Assembly (NCBI GenBank): GCA_965655095.1
Contig: OZ296652.1
Span: 2,728,001 to 2,792,000 of the forward strand
DNA from: Haplodiscus bocki
Lineage: Eukaryota
Direction of reading: 5' to 3'
DNA length: 64,000 bases
Below the pieces are notes generated by a model. That model was not told the origin of the DNA, did not search any database, and saw nothing but the letters and a program-made list of their open reading frames with translations. Positions 34,990 to 63,547 of the stretch are shown one piece after another. The position numbers were made by a program, and so were the translations under genes. The first letter of the stretch is position 1. The number at the start of each line of letters is the position of its first letter.

Positions 34990-35217
34990 CTCCCTTAATC
35001 GAGTATGTGAACAACAACTTTGATGGAAAAGCGAAGGTAGTGAGGACCTCTTCTAGACATGGTTTGATCAGGGCTAAAAACTTTGGTAGTAAACACGCCA
35101 CCGGGGAAGCTTTAATTTTCCTGGATTCCCACTGCGAGTGCACTACAGGCTGGCTTCCACCTCTCCTGCAAGCTTTAAAGCAAAATCCCAAAACTGTCGT
35201 CCAACCAGTCATTCCAG
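34990..35217 (+). CDS. GALNT: GALNT exon (GT-A catalytic domain, DxH motif)
   Basis: Acceptor ttgtttcag|. Translation [75 protein letters not shown]. Donor G|gtatcc, phase 1. Confidence 0.93.
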
Positions 35218-38200
35218 GTATCCAGGGTTGTTAAGTTTGTTTTTAATCAGTTTTGAACATAATAATTAACAAGCCGAGAATGGCCAGAGTCAGCGCTACC
35301 CGTGTGGCTCAAAATACTGATACGACGGAGTTGACTTTATTGTTTGAAAAATGTTTTTTGGTATATTCTTGGTATAAAATATTACTATGCTGGGATTCAA
35401 ACTTTCTAGCTATCCTTTTATTAGAGTTTATGAGGGGTTACCACGAAAAAAGCTTGGATCGAACGTCCAAAATTTTTTTCGGAAATAGGTAGATTTCCGG
35501 TGTAAAATGTAAAAATAAATAACCTATTCCGGGGTTCAAACCCGCGACTTGTGGTTCCGGAGCCCATTTCTCCTACCCACTGCGCCGTATAAAATGCAAA
35601 AAAAGTCGAGTATATGCAAACGGGCGGTTTTTGGTGGAAATTTGATTTTTGGACAACCTGGAAGCAGTTTGAAGTGTTTGTGCTGGGGAATTGGAGATGG
35701 TAGTGGAAAGTTTCAAAAGCCACTCCATCCCAAGCTAGAAAATTTACTCAAAACTTAAGGCAAGTCTCCTACTCCAATTTTGTGACTGCTGCCTTCCTAC
35801 ATTTCAACAAATTCGCCTCAGGCCTGAGTTCGAAAGGAAGGTCTTTTTCTATCTGGTGAATCAAGTGAAGAAATCTGATATTGATAAAGAGCTAAATTAG
35901 GATTAGTAATAATATCATTTTTTGGCCTACAGTTATTAATAAAATCAGAAAATCAAAATATCAGAGAAAGTGAAAGTATAGAAAATTCAAAACAGACACA
36001 ATCAATTAAGGTATAAATGAAAACGGTAAAATATAAAAACGGAAAAGGGTTGTAGGTTTTACAAGAACAAGGACATCTAAGTAAGTCATAAGTTAATCTT
36101 ACGGCTCAAAATTCATTTTGTCAACTAAGGACAGCAAGTTGTCAGACCTTAGTTGACAGCAAGTTGTCAGACCTTAGTTGACAGCAAGTTGTCAACTAAG
36201 GACATTAAATTGGCAACTACAGACAGTTTTTTAAAAACGGCAAATTGCCAAAATTGTTTTAGGCCCGCAATATTGCAAAGGCTGTGTGCATTAAGCAAAG
36301 AATGTAGTAGAAAAGGTAGAACTATTCAGATCCGCAAATTGCCAAGACGAGTTCTATCTCTTTATCAATTATCAGACCCGCAAAAATGCTAAGGTTGTCG
36401 AGTCCGCTTTTGGCTAGGACTTTTCTCAAATTGAGAAATAGATTCAGTTCCCTCAATCAAGAGGAACGGCAAAATGCCAAAATACAAGTTTTAGGTTTAA
36501 AAAAGTTACAGAAAAGTGTTAGTTGAACTTAGCTACTTTACTGTTTTTCTGAAATAAGGAATAAACTTAGTTACTGAAACTTTTAGTCTACATCAGAAGA
36601 AAAGTTAAAGTTAACTTAGAAAAGAAAAATTATTCAAAAGAAAAGTTAGAGATGAAAACAAAAATGATAAAAATGTTCGACTTACAATTACTGCTCAATA
36701 TTTCTGCACCGGGTTCGATCCGTCTTTGCTGGAAAATGGCTGGCGTGAACTCACGTATCTTCTGACTTCTGATTTGAGCTGGATGAGATCGCGCCAAAAC
36801 GGGGAATTTCGTCCGCTATATATACTAAATTTTATTCACTCGGGAGCCAATCAAAATGCGAACAGCACTGGATTGGCTCTGAGTATGACGTCAACTCATG
36901 TGACCAGTCACGTGACTTTGGAGTGTCAATATTCATATTGTTAAAACACACATGACGTCAAATGACGTCAGATGACGTTATTATTTCGGGAGTTGATTCT
37001 ATTGTTTGGTGAACGACGTTGTTGTTCATATAAGGTAAATCAGGGAGTAACGGCGGCTGTAGTTTTGAAGTGGTTGTATACAAATGTGACACGTGATCAA
37101 ACTTGTGCATCGGCAGTCAAAATAGCGGATATAAAATATTATTGTTTAAATTTTTAGTTTTTCAAAGTTTTCCTTTTCTTTTTTTTCTTTGCTGTAGGTC
37201 AAACTACATCTCATCCGGGGTTCAGGATTGTTGGAGATGAAACCGGGGTTCACGGTAAGTCAGGAATCTTTACCTAGATATGGACAATATCTCTCATTTT
37301 TAGATTCTTACTTGTCTTGAACATTTCTTCATGCTGAAGTAGAATAAAAAACCACAACTTGAGTTTTGTTGCAAGGGCATTGGTCGTGAGAAGCAGGGTG
37401 TAGTTTTGTCGTCTGTCTTTAAGACATTCATCCAGATTAAACCAGAATTGACTTGTCTGAAAATACTGATTTGAATTGATCCTTTAAAGGACCAAGAGGG
37501 GATATCGTCAAGGGCTTCGGCGATCAAAGATATAATAATGGACATTGATCTGCCATGTGCTGAGCCACATCCATAAAGGAAGGCGCTAATAAACAAACTA
37601 AAGCCTTATAATTTGCTGAGGAAAGCTGTGGTACAAAAATTGCGTGCCAAGTTGGGATAGGTAATAATTGTGTTTTTTGCTTCTTCAAATTGTTTGGCGT
37701 TGATGAAGATGACCAAAAAGTTTTCGAGTTTCCAAATATTTTTGAAGAGTTTCCAATCGCGGGGTTGCTCTCCTGTTTCCAACTTTTGTAGTCGAGATTC
37801 AAAATTGTCTATCTTTTTAGAAAGTTTCTTATTCTAGTAATCTATGTTTAGGCTGAATGGCCCATTGTATTTAGGTTTGGGTTTTTCTAATTTGAGTTGG
37901 GCTAAAGTCTTTTCAACATCTTCAAGTTTTACAGCAAGGGCAGTGCTGAGAATTTGTTCAATTTCAAATTTTTTTCAATGAGGTTCGGGAAATGTTTAGT
38001 AAAATGCTGAAATTGGTCTTCTAAGTAGGACGGATTTTCGTTGAAATTTGAGCGATGGGTTTTCGAGGGTAAATTTCTGTCGTTTAGGATCCCAAAACAC
38101 ACTCCTCAACTAATTATTGTTTTTTTTGCAATTTTGTAGGTTAGATTAAATTGAAGCTGAGGATTTTTAGTAATGATATAATTTGGCGTAGCTTCCTCGC

Positions 38201-41200
38201 TTTTCCTCTGTTTCTGAAAGAGTTGTCATGAGGAGATAGTTGACTTTGGCTTTTTGGCTCTATCGCTCAGGGCATTTGGAAGTTTATCGGAGGGGGTGGT
38301 AATTAGTTTCGCTGGTTCGTGAATTAGAGTGGTTTTGCTAGGAGAGTTTTTTGGGTCTTCAAAGATTAGTTCTGGAAGCTGTAGAAGGTCGACTTCTGTG
38401 ATATTGTTTTTGGAGTAGAGAATCTAGATCTGAAAAAGGATAACTATCCTGGGTCATATTGCTGAAATCAAAAGCGTATCAGTTACTTTGAACAGGTGAA
38501 ACGGCGTTGGGAGCAATATTGGGTAGTGTTTGATTAGAGGAATAAATGTGGTTGGTAGATTCTTGCGTTTCCACAACCATCGGTGTTGAAGACTCAATGG
38601 TTTTGGCTGGTGAATAGAATGAGTTTATTTTTGAACCCATAAAAAGCTGATAGTAAAACTTTTCCGAAGCTGACGAATTTTCCCGTTATCAGATGTATTT
38701 CTAAGGTATTCATCATAGTGACGATTAAATCAAAGATCAGTTCTATAAAAAGGAAAATAGCGAACCAGATTCCGCATTTTTCAAGCCAGTAAACAACTGA
38801 TCCAAAAGTCCGGACAAATTTGTTCTCGAAATTTCGGAGAAAACATGTTATCTACGAAGAAGTCTGTTCGAGGTGAATAGTATGTATATCCACCTGGTCC
38901 CTTCTTTGCGTTTGGGGGAACAATCAAGTTTCGTGTGAGTTTTTGCAAGGCGTTCCGTGATGCTGAACTCATTAGTATAGCGTCCCAAAATTCGCTGAGA
39001 TGTCTTTTCGTATACATTGCAGCTTTAACTCATTGGGGTAACTTTTGCGTTGTGAAGAGAGAAACGTCTTTAGGGGCGAATACTGCAGGTCTGTCTTTGT
39101 GAGCAATTTCTGGTGTTAGGGATTACCATGAGTCCTTCTGAACCATAGCCACTCTCCGGGAAGAAACTTGGGTTTGAACTTTTTTCTGGCATAGCATCGG
39201 GTAGAGTTTGTCTAGTAATGGATCTACGAATTGTATTCTTCTTTTATAAACGATGGCATTTTGTCATTACATTGCTTGAGAGTGTGTAGGGCTGATCTCA
39301 TTTGTGGGCGGGAATGTGTAGGGCTGATCTCATTTGTGGGCGGGAAGAGAGCCATGCTAAGCTTCCATTTTTCTCTAAGAACATTGATCTGTTTCCACTA
39401 AGCATGTATCCCGCAAGGCCGGGGTTTTTCGAGCGAAAGCATCAAGATAGTGAAGATTTGGATTCTTTTGTTCACATTGGTTCTTGAATAGATTCAGTTC
39501 TGATTCCTGTAGTGCTCTAGTACTCTCCAAGATAAGGCAGTCGAGATCTGTTTCTTGTAATTCCTAGTCCATATTCAACCATATATTGATGTATGGGTCA
39601 GCAGATTTGGGTTGAGGACTGTAGACGTAGAGGTTTCCAGGTTTCGGGAAGAATGCATTATTCTGATACTGTAAAAGGTGAGGACCTAGTTCGTTAATTT
39701 TCCGTCCTGTTTTCATATCAAATCACCCATAGTGGATTGCAACAAACAGTGAGGCGTATGTAGTTGGATAAACTTCTGTTGGTTTGTTACAAAGATGTTG
39801 AGGGTTATTTTTTACCTCAAATAAATATGTGCTCTCCAGTGAGTTTTGGCTAACTTTGTAAAAGTGGTTGTCGTTTTTTTAGCATGTGCTCATAGTCTTC
39901 TTTTGAAACTGATATTATGCAATTTTCAGGAGCTTTCCACGTAAAAACATAAAGGTCTAATGATGTACTTTCCCATCAAAGTGTGTGCAGGTCGCAAGGT
40001 AGTAGCTGATCATTTCGGTTGAATACTTTGCCATATTTATTTCTCATCTTCAGAGTGATTATTAGTATAGACTTTCCAAACTAGCTTTGGTTATCCATTT
40101 GTAAACTTTGCATTCTTTAACGTAGTCTCCATTTACATCTCCTTTCTATTTCTGATGAGTTTGTTTACTGACTTTTTCAAAAGTAAGTTTGTGGTCAAAA
40201 AGTGTGAGTGATCTCCCATCGGAGGTTTGCTTGCATTGTTCAAGATTTAGGTCTACATCACTTGTTATCTGTGGCGGTTCAATATCCATACTTCTATGGT
40301 CATGCGTCCCGCAAAAAAATTTGTTTGTTTGAGGCTTTATTCTACAAATTGTGGCGTTAATTTCAGTACGGAAGTATTTCGTGTACATAGTCAATTTTAC
40401 GTCGTTCATTTCAAAAACTAGGGGTGCCATATCACAAGGTTTAACTTGGTTTAGTGAATAAAGATTGTTTTGAGTCATTTCGCAGCAGTCAAATTGGGAG
40501 ATTTGTACTGAAGGTGCAGAATTGTCATCTTTGGGTCCGTATTTGTGGCACAGAGAAATGTTCAGCACAAAAGAAATAAAACACATTTTATGAAAGCCAT
40601 CTTTTCACTATTCATTATCACATTTGAAAACGGCACTTCGATCAGACCTAAAACAGAAAGATGTTTTCAATGAAGGAAGGTAGCAATTTGCTAACCAAAT
40701 GATGAAGAAGTTTTGTGCCGTAGCTCTTGGCTATACAGAGTTTCAGGCATATAGCAACTGAAAAGATTTGACAACGTTAGTCCAGGTGAAAACAATGCTC
40801 AAATTTGGCAACATTGGTCAGGGAAAAAAACTTTGGCAATTCAAGCCAGAAAAGGAAACTTTGACACCTTAGGCCGGCGAAAAAACCTTCGGCAACTTAG
40901 GCCGGGAAAGAAACATTGGCACCTGTAGGCCAGAAAAAGGAACTTTGGAAACTGTAGGCCAGAAAAAGGCACTTCGGCACCTGTAGGCCAGAAATTAAAC
41001 ATTGGCTTCTGTAGGCCTGAAAGGAAACATTGGCATCTGTGGGCCAGAAAAAAAAACATCGGCACTTTTGGGCCGGAATACATTAGTACTTTCAGACTGG
41101 AACAACTTGTTAAAAAAAGGTTAGAGCTGAAAAGTAAGATTGGTTGTAATTGCAAAAGGAAATTCGTTACAGTTGAAAAAGAAAACGTTAGTCAGAAGTT

Positions 41201-44200
41201 TGAAAAAACAGTCAAGTAACTGTTTTTGTACCTGAAAAGAAAAGCTTAGCAAACATCACTGGCACCACCAGTGGCAAAAAGACAAAAAACTAGCACCAAT
41301 AGTTATAAAAGAACAAATGCTGGCACCACCAGCTATAGAAATAGAATTCTGGCACCACCAGAGAAGGCGACTTTCAGCTGGATTGGTTCTGTACAATCTT
41401 TTTGGTTTCTTGTATATAGTAGCCTGTAGGGGTTCCCATATGAAATTCTGCAGTGTCCATTAGTTCTCGTAGAGCATGAATATCCTGTTGAGTAAGTTGC
41501 GGATCTGGATACTTTTTATAGACAGTCAAAGTGATAAAAAGTTTCCAGAGGCAAGTGTTTCTCTTTTAATATTGAAGATATTTGGATGAGCGGGATTGTC
41601 AATAGGGTAGATACTGGCTGTTATTGAAAATGGGTGCTGAAACGACCATCCAGGTTCTAATATCATAAAATCATGACTTGCTCTCCACGGTACAGTTATA
41701 GTCGACGGGCAATTGAGCTCTATTTCCTAAATTTTTTTCCCTCGTAAATATCTTCGTCTGGATCAAACATCAACGTTGTCAAACATATCTGTTGATTTCG
41801 GCTAAGTGTAAATTGGATGGAAAAACATGTGGTAGTGTAAAAACTGTTTCAAGAAATGGGTTTTATAGGCTTCCTTCTACGATGGTAAATGTCTTATTTT
41901 CTTTCGTCTGAGGATTTTGTGGGTAGGGAAATGCATTGTAATTCTTTTTTCTCAAATTGGATTTATTCCACGCTCTGATTGTTGATTTTGAAGTACACTA
42001 AGACAGTTGTTTTCTTTTAGTTGACTTCGTTATCCAAAAATGTTGTCTCCTATGAACGAAGTTGTTGCTCCATGGGCAGTTATTACCCGCTGGTGAGATT
42101 TCTTGTGTTTTCTTTTCTGTTAGGCATGCAACTGGAAGGAGTATGAAGGTTGAAGTAACATCAAAATGCATGTCATTCCAAAACTTGTTTTTGGATTCTG
42201 TGATGTTCTTGATCGAACACGACCATATCTTAAACATAATCGAACACGACCATATCTTCGTTTTCGCTCACGCCAATTCTTTGTAAAGGTTAATTCTAGA
42301 ATATGGATTGACGCTGGATCAAGGGGAGTTAGCAAGTTAGCACAGTAGACGTCTAAAACCAAAGTTTGTTTTTAAAAAGCGGTAGGACAGTTGAGGTACA
42401 TAACAATACGTGGCTAGAACAATAGAAGAATATAACAATAGGTGATTTGAACAATAGAAGGGTAGAACATGAGAACGATAGAACAAAAGAAGGATAGAAC
42501 AATAAAAGGACAGAAACTAGAAGGGTAGAACAATAGAAGAATAGATCGATAGAAGGATAGATCAATGGAAGGATAGAACGATAGAAGGGTAGAACAATAG
42601 GTGGGTAGAACAGAAGTTTGTTTATCAGAGGAGGATAGAAAGGGTTTTGGTGAAACAGTAGACTTGTTGAATAAAGGAATGTTGGAAAAAACATTGGAGA
42701 ACAAAGAACGTATAAAACGACGGCTTATTGTTTTGTCGTCGGTTGTTGTATTGTGTAGCAAATGGTATTTTTTCTTCAAGGTCTTTTTTCCTCTGAGCTA
42801 GTCAGTCTGATCGAAATTTTCTCTGCTGTAAGTTTGTCGCCTCCGTAGTGTTGCCTACGAACTTGCTTCTGCTACTGAGTGGACCCACTTCCGTTGAAGA
42901 AAAAGTTTTGGAAAAGATATTGTGGGCTCGGGAATTAAATAGGATAGAAAAAGAAGAAAAATGTCGGAGAAACTTTTGAACGAGCATGGGGGTGCCTGAA
43001 AATGAAATCTTAGATTTTCTTATGTTTCAGTTCTTTCCTCAAATTTCAATTGATCTTTACGTCTTCGATGGCTGAAGGAACACCAGTGGGAAAAGTTTCG
43101 GGTCATTTCTTGGGTGCCCGGGATATAGCGAGGCTGCTTTTTTGGTGAAAGAACTAAGAATGTCTCTGATTACAAGGAATGATATGGTCCAAATCAGTTT
43201 CTCACAATCATTTGTGACCATTCTGCAGGTCGGTGCCGGGGACAATGTAAGACTTATTGCTCCTTCTTGAGTTTCCTTTACTAATTGATGTTTCTTGATT
43301 TGCAGTAATATTGCTCTGTTTCAGTGGTTATCCGCTTTAGTCTCCTCTTGTGGGGACTTCCTCTGGCATAAGTTGGAAGCGATCCAGGCTGGTTATGAAT
43401 CGCTAGGTTTCATTGGGAAACGGCACATCATCCAGCGCTTGGAGGAGACTTTTGAGTATCGGGAGACTTTCCGGCGGAAACTGGATGACATTTAGAAATT
43501 AAATATGAGTAATATCTATATTTTAATTAGCTTTAATAACTTGTTTAATCCCTTGTTTCCTTTTCTCTCTAGTTTTCTAAGTGAGCTATTAGGATCAATT
43601 TTTTCATACCTTTTTTGACATTCGTCGCAAAACGGGCTCTTTTGCCTATATCAGTACCACTGTTTAACTTTGATGGGGTATTTGGATTACTGGGCTACGA
43701 ATCACACATTGGATCCCGTAGCTCAGGTGATTCTCTAGGCTTAGGTGTCATGGGCAAAGTTTGTGAATTCAATTTGGGTGAGAGAAACAATGTTCATTTT
43801 TCATAAGGGCTTGAGTTTTGACTTCTAGGCGAATGATGTATCGAACTTGCAGGGGATTGTATTCCGGAATCTGCTTTAGGTGAAGATTCATTATCATCCT
43901 TTTGTTGTCTATCTGGGTTGTCTTGGATGGGCGTTATAACAAAAAGCCTTACGTCAAGGAAATGTTTTTTTTCTACCAGAGTTGTACTGTTCATTTTGTG
44001 AGTTGACGAAATGGCTATGGAAATCGGAGTCTCTAAATATGAGACCATAGTTAGTAATAAACGGAGGGAGTTGTACTTCTTTCGCAAAACATTCGATTAG
44101 GGGATTTCTTTGCATAGTTTTGACATCGTCGGGATTGGCATCTTCTAGCATTCCGTATGTTGTAATCGCGATTTGTCGTGTTTCTGTGAACGATCCGACT

Positions 44201-47200
44201 CGTAGTTGTTGCAATTTTCGAGATTTCGAGAGAACCTCTGCGTGGTTTTGTAGGAAGATTTTTTGTCCTATGCTGATAGGCCGTCCGAGTTTGTATCGGC
44301 TTCGGTTTTCGTGTGCTTTTGACGCTATCTGACGACACCTTTGATAGGTTAACGAATAAATTTGTTTGAATTCGTTTTCTCATTTTAGTAACTCGTCGGA
44401 GAGTTGTGGACGAAGTAAAGTGAAATGTTCGGTAGGTTGTTTTCACTATGTGTATGAGATTGGAGTCCATGGCAAAATTCGGATTTGCACTGTTTATTCT
44501 TATCTCGTGATAGTCCGAGTTTAAGTGTCATTGGGTTCTGCGGTTTTGCTCCGAAGACAATGTCGTAAAGTGTCTGACCAGTTGTGTAATCTACACTTGT
44601 GTTATGTGCAAATGCAAATTTGAATGTGAGTTTTGACGAATTGTATCCAGATTCATTAATGAAATTTCGCGAGTTTTTGGCAAGGTGCTTATTTTGCACT
44701 TCAACTTTGTCATTTCTCCATGGTGAGTAGGTAGTACTAGGAGCAAGGGTTATTCCAAACATTTTGGTCCCGTTGCTGAGGTCACTATTCATGAAGGCTG
44801 AATCATTATCATAAACCATTTTTTGAGGTTTACCACACGATGTGATCCATTTTTCTAATGCGTTGAAGGTGGTCTGAGCTCTTGTGTCGCTGACTGGATA
44901 AGCTCCAAGGAATCGGAAAAAGGCGTCCAGTACGACAAGACAATGGGTATGTGAATCACTGCTAGAAGTGGTCTTTTGTGGTCAATATGTATCGTCTTGA
45001 ACGATGCGGTTTCCTATTCTTTCCATTGCTCTAACGGTGCCTCATGTCAGTGATGTCTTTTCCTTTTTTTACTTTGGAATTGAGTGCAATCTTATATTAG
45101 GTATACTATCCATTTGTATCGTCCAGGCCAAAACAAAAATTGTCTGATGTTTTCGAAAGCTATGAATGTTCCTCGATCTCCGCTATGGCAATTAGTATGA
45201 GCTGAAGAATAGAGTGGTGGGAAAAGTGATAAGGGAACACAAATCTTCTATTCGGTTTTGCAGGTATCCTGAATTTTTTCTCTGTAGCTCAGGAGGTTGG
45301 TGTCATGATTGATTAAAAATTGTTCAAACTTGTTGTAGCATGATAACAAGGCTTTTGGTTGGTTAACTTCGGGCTTCTTCTGAAGTCTCGTATCGGAGGT
45401 TCCGATCCATTTGCGAACAACTTGTAGTACAGGATCATTGATTTGTTCTTCCAATGGTGTTTGTATGTCTAAGTCAGCTTCGCGAGCAAAATCACTAAGT
45501 TTCTGAATCATGTCGGTTGTGTCTACATGAGGAATTAACTCGAAAGGTATGGGTTTCTTGAGAATCGGTTTATCCTTTGTTTTCGTACGGAATGATTCAT
45601 GGTCTACAAAGTGGGACGAAAATCAGGGTCCTGATTTTCGATGTTGAGTTCTGCTACTTCAGTTGCGTCTTCTGTGAGTCTTTCGTTGTACTGTTCGATA
45701 TTACTGTAGTCTCGTTCGTAGAGACTAGAGGTGCTTGATGACGGGTTAATATTGGAGCAAAGCTGTTTGTATTGGTTTAAGTTTAAAGCAATCGGTGATG
45801 TCTGGCATGTTAGTTTGGGTTTCTTTCTCTTCGAAGTAGTCTTCAATATGATGCTCATTTCCATCGTTTTTAAGTCTACTAGTCTTTCGTGTATTACCTT
45901 GTTGGCAGCTGATGGGGTAGAAATCGTTATATTATGCATTTTGTTCATCTTCATTTTTGATGGTGTAATGTATTTTGTGACCGTCCTGATCATAGAATGA
46001 TATATCGTGCGGAATCTGTTTAAGTTGAAGTTGGAGTCGATTTGCCTCTGAAAGTGTCGAGGTTGGGCTGAGAAAATTAGGAAATGCGAGATTGGATCCA
46101 GGTGTTCAAATGATTTTGAATTTGTGAAATTTGGTGATCATGACTCAATATTTGAAAAATCGGTGAAATATTTGTCCTTGCCGTGCCGAAACGGAAAGAA
46201 TGGGTTTGTGAACACAATAGAGATATATGGGAAAACCTGAGCAAGAATTATAGTGTTTATACGTTCGTAGTGTAGATAGAATCCCACATAAATCACGTTG
46301 GAGGGTCGACACCTTTTGCTCCGCCTTATCAAGAACTCTAGAATTGATTGAGATTTCTGTTTCTCCTTCGAGAACTTGTTGTACTAGTATGCAAGCGTTC
46401 ACGATGTTAGGGGAGTCAACGTGTATATGGAAGACGTACTCAGTTGAAGGTACTGCCATTATAGTGTCTTCGGAAATTCTGGTGTTGATTTCCTTAGGAT
46501 GTTCTTCAAATTGATCGGTCCATTTTTAAGGAACAGTAACTTATATAGTGTTCGTATGTTTGCAGGGCAGATACTATCCCCCATAATTCACGGTGAAGGG
46601 TTGACATTTTCTGTTTGGCGTTATCAAAAACTCTAGAATTGAATGAAACTATTCTTTTTCCCTCGGGGAACTGTTGGACTAGTATGCAACCGGTTCCGAC
46701 ATTAGATGAGTCGACGTGTATGTGGAAAGGGTACTCGGTTGAAGGCACTGCCAGTATAGTGTCTTCGGAAATTCTAGTTTTGATTTCTTTGAAAAGTTCT
46801 TCATGCTGATCGGTCCATTTGAAAGGGGTAATATCTTTAATCAGTTCGTGGAAGGGTTGACTATCGACGTGGAGGTTCTTGATATAGCAGCTGTAGAAGC
46901 CTTGGCATCCGAGGACTTTCATTACATTTCTTTCGCTCTCAGGAGAATTCAGACTCTGCAGGTCTTTCACTCTTTTTGCAAGGGGTTGAATCCATTTTTC
47001 GGTAACAAGTTGGCCGAGGAGTTTACTTTCCTCAAGAAAGTTTCAGTTTTGTCTGGTGCTGCTTTCAGGCCTCTTTTGTGAGGGAGTTGATGATACTCGT
47101 GAAAAATTGTGAACAATGCTGCTTTTGTTTGGGATTGGAGTAGACTGTCATCAAGTTAAGATATAGCTTTCTTCTTCCTGATGAGTGGTTCGGAGTTATT

Positions 47201-50200
47201 AGCCATCATCCGGCTGAACCACTGAGGTAGACCACAGGGTCCCTAAAATCCAATTTGGTAGGTGTTTTGCTTTCCTCCTCTCACAAAAATTGTCAAATTT
47301 TGTGTTTCAGGAGATAGGGGAACTTGATGATAAGCGCATGAAAGGTCGCTTGCAGTAAAGTTTTTTCCATTATTTCGGGTCCTTACCATTTGGACTGGCT
47401 CTAGGGGGCACGCGTAGTTAGTCAAGTTGGTGATTGAGTTTAGGTAACTAGCATCGATGACCAGTTTAACATAATTTGCTCTTGGGAGTAGTATGATTGG
47501 GTTAACGAAAAGTGATCCCAGCTCATCATCATCTCTCATTTCTCGGACATTATCAGAGTCTTCCAGTTGGCCAAGGAGTTTCTGTAGTTTGTCTTTAAGA
47601 TGAGGAGGGCATTTACTGGGTCGTTGTTTCCTGAGTTCTGAATTGGGTTTTAATATGATATGAAGTTTCTGCTTTGTCTGGCCGATGTCAAAGTTGTGCT
47701 GAGTGTAGGCGTCTCTAGACTCTATGACCATGTCGATGAGGGTAACTAGTTCTTCATCTTCTAAGTCAGTATATCAGAAAACGATTTTTTAATGAGATTC
47801 TTGATATTTTGCTGTGGATATTGGAGATAGTGAAATATCAGATCTGCATTTAGTTGTTCTGATCTCAAAGTAGGAAATTGTTCGGTGCAAGGTGGTTGAC
47901 AGGATTTTGAATTCCTTTCAAAAACGGTCTCTGGTTCATCTTTTCATTCAATCTATTCGTTTGTTTATTTTTCTACTTCATGTTCTGCATAGTGTTTGTC
48001 GTTTGGTGGAGGGTATATTTTTAAACAGTTTGTTTCTTTTGTGATTATCTGAATCTAGATTCCAGAGTATGTGAAAGTATCTTGTATGAGTTTAAGAACA
48101 GCAGTCCGTCGAAGTTTCTTTAGACCGCAGCAATTTTTGGGTATTATAATTTTGGTGACATTGTTTAGTAAAGCATGTTTTCTCATATTTTCAAGTGAGC
48201 TTCGGAGATTATCTAATGTTGATTTTTCATGAAATTTTGATTTAGCTACAAGATTGTAGATAAAGTTGTTGGATTGCGGGTCCCAGTAGGGGAGAGCTGA
48301 ACCTACGATTGTTTTGGCTTTTCGACAGTCTTCTTGAAGTCCGTTCACGACCAATTGTTTCTGCAAATCTTTTGCTCATCTTCGCTTCGGCGGTTAATAC
48401 AATGGGCGATAGCGGAGTGAGCTTGAAAGATTGTTTGGTCGTTCCCATTCGAAATCTGTATTTTGTCTTGCATGTCAGCTTCGCATGGGTCAATGAAATG
48501 GTTCAGAAAGCATTCGTTATACTGGTATCTCCGTAGGAATTGAATTAACCATTTTGACACAGTCTTTTATCTGGTAATTGGGTCTGTCATAGTCCGAGAT
48601 ATAGTGATGAATAACCAATAACGCCTTTGTTCAGAGTGATCTGGTGGTTTCTGTTGTTTTCCATCAAGATGGGTAAGTAAGTTTCAGACTGATTAAATAG
48701 TAAGTTAACAAAATCTAGTCCTGATTTGACTGACTGTCGATGAGGAACGAAGGTAGTTACTGCTGAGAAGTTTTGCGATTTATCTTCTGACGAAAAATTC
48801 TAAACTCTCGAAGTTTCGGTGTCGATATGAATTTGACGAGGTATTCTAATAGTGTGGATCTTTTAGACAAAAGGATAGGGTTTTGTTGAACACAAATTTC
48901 AGTAACAAATAGCGTTCGCCGTGTTTTTGAATTCTATTGATGGTATTTCGAAATGTAATTTTGAAACGTATTGTCCGCAAAATTCAACCCCGAGAAGATT
49001 CGGGGTCTGTTTTTCTGAAAACCATATTCGTGGTCGAAACTGATGTTCTCCATCTGAATCAAAACTGACGGATAGAGTAGTCTGCCCAGTCATCGGTACA
49101 ATTTCGCCGGTGTAGGTTTTTGTCCTATGTTTACTTCTAGCAACAGTGATCGGTTGTCTAAACTGAGCAATTTCAAGGAAGGTTCTGTAGTTTAAGATGG
49201 AGCAAGCTGCCCCGGTGTCGAGCATGAACTTCATGTCGAGTCCACTATCTTTTTCGCTATCTCCGGTGGAAAAGTAGAGGGCGTTCATATGGAAGCGTGA
49301 ATTGAAGTTACTTTCTTCATCTGATCTCGGAGACTTCAGAAGTTTAGAGGAAAGAAACCTGATAAAGTGTTCACTACATCTTGACCCTGATATTCAATAA
49401 ATTGATCTGAGTTGGTTGTAGGTAGATTTTTGCTCTATGGGAAGTTTCTGTTTTACTGAGCATCGGAAGCTTCAGGATAAGCGTTGAAGTCATAATGAGT
49501 TTGTTGACAGTTATTTGGTCCATTAGTCCAAGAGCTGCTTGGTCTGTCTTGACGATACTGTCTATCTGGGTTCCGGTTTCTATCTGGATTGAGGCCATTT
49601 TAATTAGGGTGTTTCTGATTTTCTGATTCCCGTATCTGGGTTGCTGATTGAAAGTTCTGAGACTCAAAACTCGGTCCCCTTCTCATATTACAATCATGAG
49701 CGAAAACTGTGCAACAATCCTGTTTGTTCCGTGTCTGCTCTCTTTCGATCTCATCATCATGAGCTATTGTTCTGCAGTACATGAGAGTGTGTACATTTCT
49801 TCGGCAAAATGAGCCAATCTTGTCATATTCTGTCTTGACTTGTTATTACTTTTGTAGGTCAGGAAATAGACTGATTGACTTGGTGTACTTGTTGTTCTTT
49901 GAATAATGCAGTGCGGTCTTTAGTCTGTTGCTCCAGAGAGTGGAGTTTGGTATTCTGATCGGCAGTGGCATTAGGTACTAGTTCTGAGCTGATTGTATAG
50001 ATCACATCTTAGGAAGTGATATGAGTTTGGAAGACATCCCACGTTGCATTTGGGTGCTTTGTCAAATATTTATGAGTTTTTCTGTTTAGTCCAAATGGTT
50101 TGAGTCCTCTGATTGTGATTTTGGTGTATTTGGCATTTCTTTGGTTTTGTTGATTATCTGTTTCGGCCTGGGTTCCGTTTGGGTCTAAAAGTCATTCTTT

Positions 50201-53200
50201 GTCAACGGCACTTTTGACTCTGTGATAAAAGTTTTTGATTAGTTCCTCATTGCTTCGCGCACAATTTTCTGCTGTGAGTTGGTGTCTGTGTTTATCTCGG
50301 TCAAATGAAAATCTGTCAATGAAAGCGGTTCTGATTTGATCCCAAGTTGCTGCATCGTTTATTGAGTCGGCATACCATTCTGCTGTTGGTCCTCGAAAAA
50401 GTGAATAAAATAGGGCTTTTTTGTCTTTTTTATGGATAAATAACGTGCTCTTTCAGCAAAATCGGGTGGTCGTGATCAAAGCGAGAAATTGATTTTGTTT
50501 TCAAGTGTGAGTGGAAAAAATTTTGCGTCCTGATCAGAATCTTTACCGGAAAATTTGTCTAAGGCCAAGTCTGGGAATGATACTGTGTTTCCTGCCATTG
50601 TCAGTAGTCTCTTGTTTCGTGGGTGTCTGTCTTTCGGCGGGTTCTTTACTCAGTTTAAAGTTAAATATGAAGTTAAAACATCCACTTACTAATCTAGGTT
50701 TGTCTTATTATGAACCTTCAAGTCTCAACCAGTTTGTGGAGTATGTTAGTACCACCTCGTGAAGTGCTGTCTAGAGACTGAGGTAGTTCTGGTTTGTTGT
50801 AGATGCCTCACTAGTTGGTTCTTGGCCCAGTTTGTGAAGTAGTGTCACTGGTTTGTCACATCTGCTTTGAGCGTGCCTCACTGTTTTGTTGATCGCATCA
50901 GTTGGCTTAATTGTCTCGCTGACCAGTCTGTATTTTGTGTAGAAGCATCGCTGACGAGTTTGTAGATTGCTAAATTTGTTTCTCGCTGACCAGTTTGTAG
51001 ACTGCTAGTTTTGAGCTTCTCTGGTCGCGCCAGTTTGTGAAGTGCTTGTGCTGGGGGGTTGAATATAATAGTGGAAAGTTTCAAAAGCCACTCTATCCCA
51101 AGCTAGAAAACTTACTTAAAACATAAGACAAGTCTCCTACTCCAGTTTTGTGACTGCTGCCTTCCTACATTTCAACAAATTGGCCTCAGGCCTGAGTTCG
51201 AAAGTAAGGTCTTTTTCTATCTGGTGAATCAAGTGAAGAAATCTGATATTGATAAAAAGCTAAATTAGGATTAGTAATAATATCAACTTTTGGCCTACAG
51301 TTATTAATAAAATCAGAAAATCAAAATATCAGAAAAACTGAAAGTATAGAAATTTCTAAACAGACACAATCAGTTAAGGTATAAATAAAAACGGTAAAAT
51401 ATAAAAACGGAAAAGGGTTGTAGGTTTTACAAAAACAAGGACATCTAAGTAAGTCATAAGTTAATCTTAAGGCTCAAAAATCATATTGTCAACTAAGGAC
51501 AGCAAGTTGTGAACTAAGGACATTAAATTGGCAACTACAGACAGTTTTTTAAAAACGGCAAATTGCCAAATATGTTTTAGGCCCGCAATATTGCAAAGGC
51601 TGTGTGCATTAAGCAAAGAATGTAGTAGAAAAGGTAGAACTATTCAGATCCGCAAATTGCCAAGACGAGTTCTATCTCTTTATCAATTATCAGACCCGCA
51701 AGACTGCTAAGCTTCTCGAGTCCGCTTTTGGCTAGGACTTTTCTCAAATTGAGAAATAGTTTCAGTTCCCTCAATCAAGAGGAACGGCAAAATGCCAAAA
51801 TACAAGTTTTAGGTTAAAAAAAGTTAGAGAAAAGTGTTAGTTGAACTTAGCTACTTTACTGTTTCTCTGAATTAAGGAATAAACTTAGTTACTGAAACTT
51901 TTAGTTTACATCAGAAGAAAAGTTAAAGTTAAATTATAAAAAAATTATTCAAGAGAAAATTTAGAGTTGAAAACAAAAATGATAAAAATGTTCGACTTAC
52001 AATTACTGCTCAACAGTACTGCACCGGGTTCGATCCGTCTTTGCTAAAAAATGGCTGGAGTGAACTCACGTATCTTCTGACTTCTGATTTGAGCTGGATG
52101 AGATCGCGCCAAAACGGGGAATTTCGTCCGCTATATATACTAAATTTTATTCACTCGGGAGCCAATCAAAATGCGAATAGCACTGGATTGGCTCTGAGTA
52201 TGACGTCGTGTCACGTGACCAGTCACGTGACTTTGGAGTGTCAATATTCATTTTGTTGAAACATACATGACGTCAAATGACGTCAGATGAGGTTATTATC
52301 TCGGGAGTTGTTTCTATTGTTGTCCATATAAGGTAAATGAGGGAGTAACGGCGGCTGTAGTTTTCAAGTGGTTGTAAACAAATGTGGGACGTGATCGAAC
52401 TTGTGCATCGGCAGTCAAATTGGTGAATATAAATTATAGTTTAAAGTTTTCCTTTTTCAAAGTTTTTTTCTTTTTTTCTCTTTGCTGTATGTCAAACCCG
52501 ACAGCAGTGGTACAAATCGTATCATCAAGATCGTCAATTTGATCAACTCCGTTGAAATTGGATCGGTTCGAAGTTAGTGTGCTGTCTGTCGAAGAGAACA
52601 AGTAACTGTGATACTAGGAACTTTTTCTGAAGCGCTGACTGAAAACAAGTTTTACACCCCAATGCAGACCTCAATCGTTGAAGATTTAGTGCAATGAAAG
52701 GGCTACGAATTATTTTTGAACTTCGACTTTTACGGAATCTTTAAATCTGAATTTTAGGAAAAATTGATATCATCGGAAACTTGAAAGTGAAATTGCTCAA
52801 CATTTTTTCAAACCAAACATCTTTTCTTGATTTTCTTTGATAAACAGTATTATCAAACACTTGCTCATGTTCGCGAAAATCGCTGATAACGTTTAAAAAT
52901 CAATGATTAACAATAATCGTTCTCAATTCTTTGAACTTTGTTGTTTTCTTCAATCGGAAACCTCTTACACTTGATTTTCTGATTAAATATTTGATCAGTC
53001 TTCATAGTTTCCTTATTTATACCTTCATCTTCAACCCGAAAATTTTTCAAAAGGTTAGCATTGAATTAACTAATTGTCTCTTTGCTCGCATTTTTCTTTC
53101 AAAAAATAACCTTTGCATTCAAATCATAAACCTTTTTATCATGGAAACAGAAGATGAAAAATAATTGTTATAGATACGACGCTGACTTGTTTTCACGCAA

Positions 53201-62200: not shown

Positions 62201-63547
62201 TAAAGAGGGAGGCAAAATTTTCGAAACTCATTTCTGATTTAGTTCTGCCCCAAGCAATCGTTAACTTTTTGTTCGAGGAACTTCTCCTTGGCAATGAACT
62301 TCTTCTAGGGAAACGAATGGTTGTCCCTATAAGCACCCCCGTACGCAGAAGTCCTTCAAATGGTTATCGCAAAGTTTTTCCGAAGTCCTAGCCGCCTTGG
62401 GCAGCTATGCTCTGTTTGTTTTTTCTCAGCTTCGTTACGTAACTCTCGTTAGAAAACGCCATGTCTTGATGATTGATGGTGATCAGCATGGCGCGTCATG
62501 AACAATTGATGAAACATGAAAGTTGACTAAAGGTAGGAAAAATCGACGCATTTTTTTCGTTTGAACTTCTGTAATTTTTTTCAGACGTTTAGCAGAAGTT
62601 TGGTTAGACGAATACAAGAAATTTTTCTACGAAATAGCTCCTGATGCCAAGCAGTTAGACATGGGCAGCATCGAAGAACAACTAGCCAATAAAAAACGAC
62701 TAAACTGCAAGCCCTTCAAATACTTCATAACGGACGTGGTCAAAGATATGTATCCCCCGACGTTGCTTTCTTATACTAAAGGGGGGCTATCTCCAACAAC
62801 ACAGTCAGAGATATGCCTGGACACTTACGCCCATAAATCCGGAGATATCAAGCTTTATGGGTGCCACCATATGGGCGGAAATCAGGCGATTTCTTTGACC
62901 GAAAAGGGTGAACTCAGAATCAACATTTTGACTTGTCTCGAATCAGTGTCTAAAGATACAGGTGTTTATATGTCTGATTGCAACGGCAATGGAAATCAAA
63001 TATGGTCTCACAAGGCTCCAAATTCTAGGTAGGTTGTGCACTTCAAGCAAAAACTGTCGATTCAGTTGCAAATCAACTCGCTCATACGATTGAGACTTGA
63101 AATTAAAGCCAGTTCAATTGATGGTGTCTTCACATTGTTATTCTTTATATGAGTTATTTTCTAGCGATTTTGAAAAGGTCTCATCAACTTTTTAAACTGA
63201 GCTCCGTGCGTTTGATCGTTTTTTGCAGAGAAGCTATCTCTCAATTTGTTTGGTTTTGACCTATGCATTTTTTCAAGTTTTGACAAGCAAAATTTTTGAT
63301 ACATTACAAGTTTAATTGAAACTTCCGGTTAAAATCAATTGGATCAATTTACTTTAATCAAAACATATTGATCGTCATTGTATCAGTGTAGTAAACTGCT
63401 CTGCTCAACTGTGTTTGCAGGATATACCACGAAGCAACAGGTCAATGCATGACTTACGAAAAAGGCAAAGTAAGAATCGCGGATTGTGACGAAAGCAACG
63501 AGAGTCAAAAATGGAAGTTTGATACATACTTCGGAACACCAGAATAA
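34990..63547 (+). CDS. GALNT: Polypeptide N-acetylgalactosaminyltransferase (GT27, GALNT family), 3' five exons; 5' exons not found in window
   Basis: Exons 34990-35217, 53907-54114, 54541-54720, 62585-63028 and 63421-63547 join in frame at GT-AG junctions. The product has RHGLIRAK, the DxH metal-binding motif (FLDSHCE), [35 protein letters not shown] and a ricin-B lectin domain. The paralogue number cannot be assigned. Confidence 0.95.
35525..35592 (-). mobile_element. Degenerate tRNA-derived sequence (SINE head or tRNA pseudogene)
   Basis: On the - strand there is an A-box-like CGGCGCAGTGG, an anticodon-arm-like TGGG-CTCCGGA-ACCA and a B-box-like GGGTTTGAACCCC at tRNA spacing. The acceptor stem is not formed. 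Confidence 0.45.
35668..37208 (-). repeat. 3' LTR (1541 bp)
   Basis: Direct repeat of 51036-52503. On the + strand it begins TTTGAAGTG (TGTGAAGTG in the other copy) and ends ...gtcaaactACA. It carries an extra 2x25-bp insertion at ~36130-36185. Confidence 0.93.
37250..38150 (-). pseudogene. Coiled-coil + TRAF-C/MATH domain ORF (RING-less TRAF-like), just inside the 3' LTR
   Basis: One frame from 37830 to 37300 reads [20 protein letters not shown]...IWKLENF...[61 protein letters not shown]...TPCFSRP...SSCGFLFY. After a frameshift it continues [13 protein letters not shown]. This matches the TRAF MATH pattern IWKI..F...FSPAFY...YGYK.C...Y.NG.G...G.HLS......G..D..L.WPF...V...L.DQ...SFQRP....SG...F. 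The 5' boundary is approximate. Confidence 0.8.
38400..40600 (-). pseudogene. env: Envelope glycoprotein, chuvirus/Jingchuvirales-like (class III fusion type), decayed
   Basis: A signal-peptide-like start is followed by QFDC...[11 protein letters not shown]...ATICRIK...FFCGTHDH.S, then LPC...FTWKAPENC and [12 protein letters not shown]...FVDP.TR. A C-terminal transmembrane segment [19 protein letters not shown] lies at ~38750-38805. Confidence 0.72.
39283..39346. repeat. 31-32-bp direct duplication inside env
   Basis: tgtgtagggctgatctcatttgtgggcgggaa occurs twice in tandem. Confidence 0.85.
40816..41078. repeat. Minisatellite, ~9 copies of a 28-29-bp unit (GGCCAGAAAAAGGAAC.TTGGCACCTGTA), upstream of env
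   Basis: GGCC anchors at 40872, 40900, 40928, 40957, 40986, 41014, 41042 and 41071. A second ~30-bp CTGGCACCACCA repeat lies at ~41259-41362. Confidence 0.9.
41400..43491 (-). pseudogene. Accessory ORF region of unknown function between integrase and env
   Basis: An ATG at 43491 is in frame with ORF fragment 43057-43245. Further coding-like fragments run to ~41400 with a low-complexity repeat inside. No family was recognised. Confidence 0.4.
42411..42612. repeat. Degenerate 15-16-bp purine-rich tandem repeat (GGGTAGAACAATAGAA)
   Basis: Repeated tagaacaatagaagg units are directly visible. Confidence 0.85.
44040..45300 (-). pseudogene. pol: Integrase (zinc-binding remnant, DDE core, GPY/F module)
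   Basis: The core reads VYDNDSAF...[16 protein letters not shown]...[26 protein letters not shown]...TTY is GPY/F-like, and an H..H..C..C remnant lies at ~45070-45210. Confidence 0.88.
46100..46800 (-). pseudogene. pol: RNase H (pol) with a diverged ~295-bp internal tandem duplication
   Basis: Copy A reads [18 protein letters not shown]...[10 protein letters not shown] and copy B reads [18 protein letters not shown]...[10 protein letters not shown]...YCVHKP. The anchor tgatcggtccattt occurs at 46807 and 46512. Confidence 0.88.
46800..47731 (-). pseudogene. pol: Reverse transcriptase (pol), Ty3/Gypsy type
   Basis: [10 protein letters not shown] and [11 protein letters not shown] are present, followed by GF*GPCGLP. 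The YxDD motif reads AIS*LDDSL, with the Tyr codon mutated to stop. The connection region reads [11 protein letters not shown]. Confidence 0.92.
48040..48465 (-). pseudogene. TARG1/OARD1 (Poa1p/DarG-like) macrodomain inside pol, between protease and RT
   Basis: Joining three frames gives [22 protein letters not shown] / [14 protein letters not shown] / VNGLQE...[64 protein letters not shown]. This parallels the TARG1 pattern SLAHCIS.D.RM..GIA...YIYYLITK.....KPTYENL..SL..MK.H...N.V..L.MPRIGCGLD.L.W..V...I..VF. Confidence 0.85.
48899..49288 (-). pseudogene. pol: Retropepsin aspartic protease (pol)
   Basis: [12 protein letters not shown] catalytic motif and downstream NLLGVEF (ILGxDF-like). Confidence 0.9.
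49320..50600 (-). pseudogene. gag: gag (retrotransposon capsid), decayed
   Basis: Manual translation gives ...[52 protein letters not shown]...[12 protein letters not shown], the L.G.A..W...TW..I...F..RF gag pattern. Boundaries are approximate. Confidence 0.75.
51018..51032 (-). promoter_or_regulatory. Primer-binding site (PBS)
   Basis: On the - strand TGGCGCGACCAGAGA begins 3 nt after the 5' LTR end (…CTTCACA aac TGG…). TGG is complementary to the tRNA CCA end. The priming tRNA was not identified. Confidence 0.75.
51036..52503 (-). repeat. 5' LTR (1468 bp)
   Basis: On the + strand it reads TGTGAAGTG...gtcaaacccgACA and is followed by the GCAG target-site duplication. Confidence 0.93.
52130..52290 (-). 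promoter_or_regulatory. LTR U3 promoter: CRE (TGACGTCA) repeats, E-box palindromes, CCAAT boxes and TATA (mirrored at ~36815-36980 in the 3' LTR)
   Basis: TGACGTCA occurs at 52268 and 52278 (36886, 36953 and 36963 in the 3' LTR). GTCACGTGAC, AGCCAATCA/ATTGGCT and then TATATATAG follow in promoter order on the - strand. Confidence 0.6.
53907..54114 (+). CDS. GALNT: GALNT exon
   Basis: Polypyrimidine tract then ttccag|. Translation (G)[68 protein letters not shown]. Donor AG|gtcaga. Not in the ORF track. Confidence 0.93.
54541..54720 (+). CDS. GALNT: GALNT exon (Gal/GalNAc-T motif)
   Basis: Acceptor gacag|. Translation (R)[59 protein letters not shown]. Donor AG|gttaga. Confidence 0.95.
55493..55691. 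mobile_element. MITE-like element (~200 bp) in a GALNT intron
   Basis: Terminal inverted repeats ATCCCGGGTC.AA / TT.GACCCGGGAT, sub-terminal inverted ttttccggtata / tataccggaaaa, and internal gttaacggcg repeats. Confidence 0.65.
56270..56500. repeat. Degenerate interspaced repeat (~25-bp AGACAT....ATGTCTGTT.AGCAC motif, ~5 copies, variable 24-34-bp spacers)
   Basis: Motif copies lie near 56272, 56331, 56381, 56430 and 56479. Confidence 0.5.
62585..63028 (+). CDS. GALNT: GALNT exon (end of catalytic domain, linker, start of ricin lectin domain)
   Basis: Acceptor tttttcag|. Translation (R)[15 protein letters not shown]...LNCKPFKYF...CLDT...[11 protein letters not shown]...CLE...NQIW. Donor AG|gtaggt. 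Confidence 0.95.
63421..63547 (+). CDS. GALNT: GALNT terminal coding exon (lectin gamma repeat)
   Basis: Acceptor tttgcag|. Translation (R)[41 protein letters not shown], containing the QxW motif. Confidence 0.92.

Follow-up and report, generated by a model that had tools for sequence, protein, structure and literature searches.

Enveloped Ty3/gypsy elements of Haplodiscus bocki with a TARG1-type macrodomain in pol and a TRAF-like coiled-coil-MATH gene

Does an LTR retroelement of an invertebrate carry genes directed at its host? The question is raised by a 64-kb window (the whole stretch of Haplodiscus bocki DNA analyzed), in which a minus-strand LTR element flanked by a 4-bp target duplication occupies positions 35668 to 52503. 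A sequence-only reading had described one LTR element with a matching target-site duplication (TSD), holding gag-pol with a macrodomain, a chuvirus-type env, and a coiled-coil-plus-MATH (CC-MATH) ORF on its sense strand, and this description was confirmed. What the additional modules may do is the subject of the following sections; all features inside the element lie on the minus strand.

Element structure and gag-pol

The 5' LTR (51036 to 52503), which begins with the TGTCG end typical of the family, pairs with the 3' LTR (35668 to 37208) at 89.8% identity in a gapped alignment (K2P distance, 0.061 over 1,465 sites), and the duplicated target sequence GCAG is found at 35664 to 35667 and at 52504 to 52507. 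A candidate primer-binding-site-like 12-mer that starts with TGG lies 3 nt past the 5' LTR (51021 to 51032). Along the sense strand, the order is gag, protease (PR), macrodomain, reverse transcriptase (RT), RNase H (RH), integrase (IN), small ORFs, env, ORF-X, CC-MATH, and 3' LTR. Each reading frame of the window copy is broken; a Pfam search of 33 stop-to-X minus-strand frames recovered RT, RNase H (twice), integrase, Monjiviricetes_fusion (E value, 4e-8), and TRAF-mep_MATH (E value, 3e-7).

The gag region (49900 to 50700) is broken and matches Retrotrans_gag below the cutoff (E value, 0.0087), and the aspartic protease (48935 to 49303) was recognized by its LDTGA motif and a weak Pfam match (E value, 0.009). 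Pfam matches and alignment to a sibling copy delimit the RT core (47003 to 47524) and the integrase (44098 to 45235), the latter with an H2C2 domain, an rve core, and a p58/SH3-like C terminus that in the sibling matches both Integrase_p58_C and SH3_Tf2-1 in Pfam and is thus of the GPY/F type. Part of RNase H (46127 to 46817; Pfam) is repeated in a 295-bp tandem duplication found in the window copy alone, which explains its double match. Compared with solved structures, the sibling RT-RH region is closest to Ty3 (E value, 1.7e-36), with the foamy enzyme at 1.7e-23.

The pol order PR-RT-RH-IN, the TG...CA ends of the LTRs, and a TSD within the 4 to 6 bp expected of the group identify the element as a member of Ty3/gypsy (Metaviridae), and both sibling copies with both ends recovered (2 of 2) have the same ends and a 4-bp duplication. 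The window element is a dead member of a Ty3/gypsy clade whose elements are complex and bear env. Troyka was considered and rejected, as the features given for it in the available part of PMC12440569 (CG...CG ends, 3-bp TSD, LTRs of 100 to 400 bp, no env) all mismatch this element.

A TARG1-type macrodomain inside pol

A broken macrodomain (48040 to 48430) separates protease from RT; its aligned part (48040 to 48348) is 77% identical to the sibling domain over 103 residues. The window copy's own domain has no Pfam match and has lost the catalytic Asp position. The sibling macrodomain matches human TARG1/C6orf130 (OARD1) with an E value of 8e-27, and the alignment covers the motifs that surround the two catalytic positions of TARG1, a Lys and an Asp. 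Among 24 proteins examined, 19 matched the motif, with the Asp in 19 of 19 and the Lys in 18 of 19. By sequence and by these catalytic positions, the macrodomain of the siblings, as distinct from that of the window copy, is of the TARG1 class. Unlike the human protein, the element domain, whose activity is predicted, is embedded in a Pol polyprotein. According to the available part of PMC11088682, TARG1 strips ADP-ribose from proteins, double-stranded DNA ends, and single-stranded RNA ends.

TARG1-like domains were also found between PR and RT of an unrelated Gypsy element and at the head of an insect RNA-virus polyprotein. In the macrodomain tree, the element domains of the H. bocki genome form one group (support, 91/88) apart from that of the other Gypsy element, and a link to the RNA-virus domain was unsupported (82/40). 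In close cellular homologues of the element domain, the fusion partner is DNA ligase 3 or NADAR. Such fusions would fit a role in the element's own replication, in which the macrodomain clears damage-type ADP-ribosylation at cDNA ends or integration nicks and CC-MATH acts as a scaffold on which env is trafficked, particles are assembled, or ubiquitin enzymes are recruited. So would the position of the domain, which occupies the slot that holds dUTPase in the Pol of other elements (PMC6431247, in the part available), and the constant location of CC-MATH immediately 3' of env and ORF-X. We nevertheless regard this explanation of both modules as doubtful. To our knowledge, most Gypsy elements replicate with neither a macrodomain nor a CC-MATH gene, and the MATH surfaces diverge strongly between lineages in a manner resembling host-conflict genes, although drift would explain that divergence too.

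Envelope and ORFs of unassigned family

The broken env (38491 to 40620) was delimited by Pfam and by alignment to a sibling, in which it encodes about 706 amino acids with a signal-like and a C-terminal hydrophobic segment, 17 cysteines, and 5 N-glycan sequons. Env proteins of two lineages match Pfam PF24664 (E values, 6e-44 and 1e-31), which by sequence places them in the chuvirus/Monjiviricetes fusion-protein family; the label "class III" derives from this Pfam family and one paper's statement. The env profile had no relative among solved structures, and an AlphaFold prediction reached a pLDDT of 28.

A stretch of about 2.8 kb containing small ORFs separates pol from env, which is followed by two further ORFs. 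Sibling alignments identified the remnant of a 149-amino-acid ORF behind pol (42819 to 43251), under weak constraint (dN/dS, 0.28 to 0.64), and remnants of two small ORFs ahead of env (41377 to 42013), of which the one of 136 amino acids is constrained (dN/dS, 0.06 to 0.42); a second lineage carries a homologue of it (E value, 3e-7). ORF-X (38002 to 38478; sibling alignment; dN/dS, 0.23) encodes 159 to 227 amino acids in the siblings, with an acidic, proline-rich N terminus, a basic patch, and a conserved W-x-I-x-F-W-D motif. Neither ORF-X nor the small ORFs had a match in Pfam, PHROG, or Atlas. At least two further ORFs of no known family are under selection besides the cargo domains.

CC-MATH and the host TRAF family

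The intronless, broken CC-MATH ORF (37253 to 37990; Pfam and sibling alignment) corresponds to a sibling protein of about 248 amino acids that lacks RING and zinc finger. A heptad-patterned helix precedes MATH, as in the layout of TRAF-N coiled coil and TRAF-C, and among solved structures the domain is closest to TRAF5/4/2/1. The RING and zinc fingers of canonical TRAF2/3/5/6 are absent from five of five element proteins and three of three host-type proteins, in which Pfam finds MATH only. The coiled-coil-plus-MATH genes closest to it in the host likewise lack a RING; two of them share the position of an intron within MATH, relatives 70 to 74% identical occur in other assemblies, and the fold predicted for the host donor is a long helix followed by a TRAF domain. 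Judged from these sequence comparisons, CC-MATH was copied, without introns, from a RING-less host TRAF family. MATH identity to the host is about 27 to 31%. The N-terminal motif FPLxxxKxxQYLH is common to the host genes and lineages B and D and is absent in lineages A and C; the lineage A protein is shorter than the host donor at its N terminus. A MATH tree (24 rows, of which two without anchor were dropped) left its deep nodes open and did not separate one capture from two, with lineage A grouping with other long branches.

The interpretation first placed on the locus was that of an infectious retrovirus-like agent with a dominant-negative TRAF decoy, blocking signaling from TLR, TNFR, and RLR to NF-kB, and an eraser of antiviral ADP-ribosylation. 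Consistent with it are the TRAF-like MATH and preceding helix, an env maintained under selection, and, in the host genome, TIR-domain frames (27 matches), a single zf-TRAF, and a marginal TNFR repeat. The host family is itself RING-less, however, so the absence of a RING is no sign of decoy design: the donors needed no RING removal. An NF-kB target also found little footing, with that one zf-TRAF and marginal TNFR repeat and no Rel-homology domain match in the genome, a weak negative (one candidate scored, no positive control, NFAT missed as well). The COX1 of the host is best translated with the invertebrate mitochondrial code 5, an argument against rhabditophoran flatworms, echinoderms, tunicates, and cnidarians, and there may be a resemblance to acoels. 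In acoels, the Toll pathway and NF-kB are reported lost in the available part of PMC12849515, which bears on this host if it is an acoel. Moreover, the one viral TRAF compared, ORF111L of ISKNV, likewise a virus-borne TRAF homologue but from a large DNA virus, is described in the accessible part of PMC3352826 as binding TRADD and inducing apoptosis, as opposed to blockade. We thus consider the decoy interpretation unlikely; of its components, family-wide, selected modules stood, and the RING-less decoy, the NF-kB target, and the novelty as claimed did not.

Family-wide retention and selection

Four related lineages were found in the 1.5-Gb genome, with env, ORF-X, CC-MATH, and LTR common to all. 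The genome holds 2,967 MATH and 6,348 macrodomain candidates, and the MATH segment of the window alone has 324. At 29 sibling loci examined, MATH lies in the 3' region of the element, mostly adjoining env and the start of the LTR. Among the best 40 macrodomain matches, a listed CC-MATH lies 8 to 13 kb downstream on the same strand in at least 23 and upstream in none. The cargo modules are thus no one-off insertions, and the clade, present in great abundance in this genome, has been active recently. Outside it, relatives were nearly absent from the collections searched: 325 env pattern matches in metagenome contigs yielded one confirmed case, a fragment of 1.3 kb nearly identical to lineage A, and viral contigs yielded 0 of 173.

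Among pairs of 15 open copies, the dN/dS of CC-MATH is about 0.13 (MATH part, 0.10), compared with 1.1 for the LTR and 1.8 to 2.0 for shifted frames of the same copies; these pairs are not independent, and the 15 were picked from 28 loci for their open frame. The window copy compared with the open copies gives 0.30. In four copies, dN/dS is 0.05 to 0.40 for the macrodomain and 0.10 to 0.28 for RT, against 0.6 to 1.0 for a spacer. Neutral evolution of the modules, set beforehand as evidence against the sequence-only reading, was therefore not seen: CC-MATH and the macrodomain are under purifying selection. Given also the family-wide retention, two of the three observations that were to count against that reading (siblings lacking the modules, neutral dN/dS, and an architecture already cataloged) did not do so. 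Neutral cargo hitchhiking on successful elements could appeal to the open frames that young copies hold for any sequence and to the complete decay of the window copy, but it is very improbable and largely refuted by dN/dS values of 0.10 to 0.19 between copies 80 to 97% identical, against 1.1 for the LTR, and by an ORF order retained across lineages whose env proteins are just 57% identical. Purifying selection shows that the modules are used, whatever that use may be.

Comparison with known elements

Each part of the element has precedent, so novelty could not be claimed in the terms first proposed: the available text of three reports describes MATH plus env in Burro (PMC6431247), chuvirus-like env beside Gypsy pol (PMC13524379), and macrodomains in fish endogenous retroviruses (PMC4977317). 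No description of the whole combination, of TARG1 inside Gypsy pol, or of the layout was found in the literature searched; it may be cataloged in Repbase, Dfam, GyDB, or subscription journals, which lay outside the search.

Chary and Hayashi reported 114 Gypsy elements with HSV/gB-type, chuvirus-like env (PMC13524379). These "errantiviruses" in the wide sense are likewise multicopy, with a PR-RT-RH-IN pol followed by a glycoprotein, but the filters of that survey (pol-env gap of at most 1,000 nt; region of at most 10 kb in non-insect genomes) would likely miss the present layout because of its long pol-env gap and extra ORFs. Its main text contains none of "Macro," "TRAF," and "accessory," and seven supplements contain these strings only within species names or unrelated words. 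The BEL/Pao element Anakin belongs to the same comparison class of chuvirus-like env beside pol (PMC7642597, available part).

Burro/GYPSM1 of planarians, as far as the accessible part of PMC6431247 describes it, citing Jurka 2007 and Grohme 2018, is similar in being a Gypsy element with env, MATH_TRAF_C, an additional enzyme inserted between PR and RT, and thousands of copies. It encodes MATH, BIR, and BCL2-like domains, its MATH_TRAF_C forms an accessory ORF of its own in Dugesia tigrina, and it has been suggested to interfere with the apoptosis and ubiquitin systems of its host. It differs in its length of 25 to 30 kb, in a giant single ORF with a dUTPase insert, BIR, BCL2, and ankyrin domains, and in an env of the gypsy/baculovirus/paramyxovirus F type placed in frame between gag and pol, so that the present element falls outside Burro. 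Because MATH here follows a gB-type env and derives from the TRAF family of its own host, the TRAF-C capture was probably independent. The epsilon-like retroelements of fish carry macrodomains as additional ORFs but belong to Retroviridae, with no macrodomain class stated in the part of PMC4977317 available, which cites Basta 2009 for them. Oikopleura Tor elements (PMC4402516) are also invertebrate and Gypsy-like with env, and Tor4b has a pol-env spacer; their env motifs differ, and the text mentions no macrodomain. Tor env is expressed via an internal promoter or splicing, and somatic expression occurs near the germ line.

Proposed function and implications

Family-wide retention of an eraser domain and a host-derived adaptor under selection suggests virus-like manipulation of the host, and we assign a probability of roughly 0.55 to the reading that CC-MATH and the macrodomain are accessory modules serving this end. 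The macrodomain would be made as part of Pol and packaged alongside RT and integrase, where it may remove ADP-ribose from element proteins or from the ends of the element's RNA and cDNA, such that host ADP-ribosylation would no longer block reverse transcription or integration. CC-MATH, presumably expressed from the 3' cassette, would amount to a surplus or diverged version of a host adaptor, binding the receptor tails or trimer partners of that adaptor and retuning a stress, death, or defense signal in element-producing cells; the pathway need not be NF-kB. Env would carry particles from cell to cell, probably from soma to germ line.

The fixation of a TARG1-type domain in the Pol of two apparently separate Gypsy lineages offers a testable case for ADP-ribosylation restricting retrotransposition, and a second, probably independent TRAF-C capture by an env-bearing Gypsy element after Burro suggests convergence on TRAF signaling. 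Surveys that filter by length would overlook this class of long, multi-ORF enveloped elements, and the size of gene families in this genome would be overestimated because elements carry MATH and macrodomain ORFs by the thousands. Since host genes are kept by selfish elements only when helpful, the cargo points to processes of the host by which the element is held in check. Tentatively, the clade may represent invertebrate retroviruses of the complex type that lack only the name. They would possess four or more selected accessory modules and inhabit a host perhaps without NF-kB, with a lineage-specific RING-less TRAF copied to thousands of loci and a TARG1 eraser fused to Pol, as separately in an unrelated Gypsy element and an insect RNA virus. 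If so, the captured TRAF would point to the central adaptor of a noncanonical invertebrate immune or death pathway, and ADP-ribosylation would be an unrecognized animal defense against retroelements, with TARG1 in Pol as its counter.

Anatomy of the element in the window

The window holds a decayed minus-strand Ty3/gypsy element, bounded by two long terminal repeats (LTRs; 35668 to 37208 and 51036 to 52503) that diverge by 6.1% (K2P), with GCAG flanking it on either side. A 4-bp duplication and TG...CA termini were found in both siblings (other genomic copies) with recovered ends. Every reading frame of the window copy is interrupted. With stops read as X, the frames matched reverse transcriptase (RT), RNase H, integrase, Monjiviricetes_fusion (E value, 4e-8), and TRAF MATH (E value, 3e-7), and gag and protease gave weak matches. 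Pfam detected no macrodomain in the window copy; its macrodomain is 77% identical to the sibling domain, which matches TARG1/C6orf130 (E value, 8e-27). The LTR pair, flanks, pol, env, and MATH domains, and sibling-supported macrodomain thus bear out the anatomy proposed in the sequence-only reading.

The element is antisense, between exons of a plus-strand host polypeptide GalNAc-transferase-like gene (35082 to 35228 and 62565 to 63029; Glycos_transf_2 E value, 5e-11; ricin-type lectin domain E value, 1e-12). Elsewhere in the window, a 2359-bp unit is repeated in tandem 14 times (positions 120 to 32744); the copies are 99.4 to 100% identical, and one is shortened by ~416 bp. The unit has no Pfam match in six frames, and its fragments may resemble decayed Polinton DNA polymerase.

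Family and lineages

A search of the 1.5-Gb host genome with the MATH segment gave 324 candidates, 40 of which were scored (identity, 76 to 79%); searches with Pfam MATH and with the macrodomain gave 2967 and 6348. The MATH segment was found in the element 3' region at all 29 fetched sibling loci, at most of them between env and the LTR start. Sibling pol is a long frame in which the macrodomain separates protease from RT, and three or four small ORFs accompany it; env has 706 aa, ORF-X, which follows it, 159 aa, and the coiled-coil plus MATH ORF (CC-MATH) 248 aa. Of the 40 top-ranked macrodomain matches, at least 23 have a CC-MATH match 8 to 13 kb downstream on the same strand, a floor because only top-scoring lists were compared, and none has one upstream.

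Largest-group sampling yielded three lineages (B, C, and D) besides that of the window copy (A), with the 3' order env, ORF-X, CC-MATH at five of five loci. The env of lineages A and B is 57% identical, and in lineage C, 13 macrodomain-MATH pairs with a spacing of ~11.5 kb were chosen by eye from match lists. The modules recur in siblings, and the env, ORF-X, CC-MATH order in lineages B, C, and D; the cargo is family-wide.

At ~65.79 to 65.81 Mb of assembly sequence C10 (loci L021, L026, and L030), a block of env tail, ORF-X, and CC-MATH is repeated in tandem at 2791-bp spacing, in at least five copies, behind one pol. In a lineage C element (G000:C6:49739590-49745568), one open frame of 3672 aa contains the macrodomain three times, spaced 2739 bp apart. 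Young lineage A LTRs (L052 and L047) contain ~232-bp internal repeats in variable number, which are missing from the window LTRs.

Selection

Pairwise dN/dS (Nei-Gojobori type, transition weight 2, Jukes-Cantor) was calculated for 15 open-frame copies from 28 loci, after removal of 2 tandem duplicates from 30. Values were 0.13 for CC-MATH (0.10 for its MATH part), 0.23 for ORF-X, and 0.25 for the env tail, against 1.1 for the LTR and 1.8 to 2.0 for shifted frames; pairs are non-independent and open copies a selected subset, but the controls nonetheless agree. The window copy against these 15 gave 0.30. Among four copies, the macrodomain gave 0.05 to 0.40, RT 0.10 to 0.28, and a 136-aa ORF 0.06 to 0.42, with 0.6 to 1.0 for the spacer. 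Residues aligned with the TARG1 catalytic Lys and Asp, positions picked by what we take to be the TARG1 numbering, are kept in 18 and 19, respectively, of the 19 motif-matching proteins among 24 examined. That the cargo is neutral is very improbable.

Host origin of CC-MATH

The two best genomic MATH matches are host genes on one chromosome rather than elements; no env was found near them, and their frames break at an identical position in the MATH C terminus, at a GT splice donor. Relatives in other assemblies are 70 to 74% identical, and one complete host-type relative (448 aa) has a coiled coil and MATH without RING or zinc finger. The predicted structure of the host protein comprises long helices and a TRAF domain. 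Element CC-MATH ORFs run unbroken across the host intron position, and lineages B and D share a host N-terminal motif. We infer that a spliced mRNA of the host was captured. The MATH tree does not separate one capture from two.

Host genes at L035 and L040 (sequence C5) belong to a conserved, lineage-specific family of RING-less coiled-coil plus MATH genes with the motif FPLxNxKxxQYLH, with no named member in the sequence collection. Cluster P0297 (104 members) comprises intronless CC-MATH sequences that belong to this host-derived family and occur in multiple copies in another assembly, with no more than 42% identity to the host genome; it probably represents cargo of the same type in a related species.

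Possible roles of the cargo

Beyond the layout, retention, selection, and host origin observed here, our favored reading is that the cargo manipulates the host, broadly understood (probability, roughly 55%). Acting as an additional or diverged version of a host adaptor, CC-MATH may retune a stress, death, or defense signal. The narrower proposal of an NF-kB decoy is improbable: its missing-RING argument falls because the host donor is RING-less too, though CC-MATH may compete for receptor tails. No Rel-homology domain was found in the genome, a weak negative without a positive control; signaling domains found were one zf-TRAF, one marginal TNFR repeat, and 27 TIR frames. The latter (TIR_2) are dispersed single frames, many of 450 to 680 aa, and could be element cargo in their own right or members of an expanded NADase family.

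The macrodomain would travel with Pol and may strip ADP-ribose from element proteins or nucleic acid ends; TARG1 acts on both substrate types, according to PMC11088682. A replication or assembly role for the cargo is conceivable, if doubtful, and host manipulation remains our preferred reading. COX1 fits mitochondrial code 5; PMC12849515 is relevant should the host be an acoel, and not otherwise.

Comparison with known systems

In the macrodomain tree, domains from elements of the host genome cluster together, and the domain of an unrelated Gypsy falls outside this cluster. The pol of the latter has a TARG1-like domain in the same protease-macrodomain-RT order, and the polyprotein of an insect picorna-like virus, Diabrotica undecimpunctata virus 1, begins with one (P0131 and P0179).

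The literature describes a chuvirus-like env beside Gypsy pol (PMC13524379), macrodomain-bearing fish endogenous retroviruses (cited in PMC4977317), and planarian Burro/GYPSM1, with MATH_TRAF_C, env, and a dUTPase between protease and RT, for which interference with apoptosis and ubiquitin systems of the host has been proposed (PMC6431247). In Oikopleura Tor elements, env expression takes place near the germ line and uses splicing or an internal promoter (PMC4402516); a viral TRAF promotes apoptosis (PMC3352826). Troyka (PMC12440569) does not fit the element and was rejected, and bioRxiv 10.1101/2021.11.30.470311 contributed nothing further.

The literature searched, which lay outside Repbase, Dfam, and GyDB, yielded no paper that describes the element's layout or a TARG1 domain within Gypsy pol. 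The element is less new in kind than proposed, since precedents exist for every type of module and for an enveloped Gypsy that meddles with its host. ORF-X, a second small ORF, four lineages, and an identified host donor go beyond the sequence-only reading, and the element is real, family-wide, and selected.
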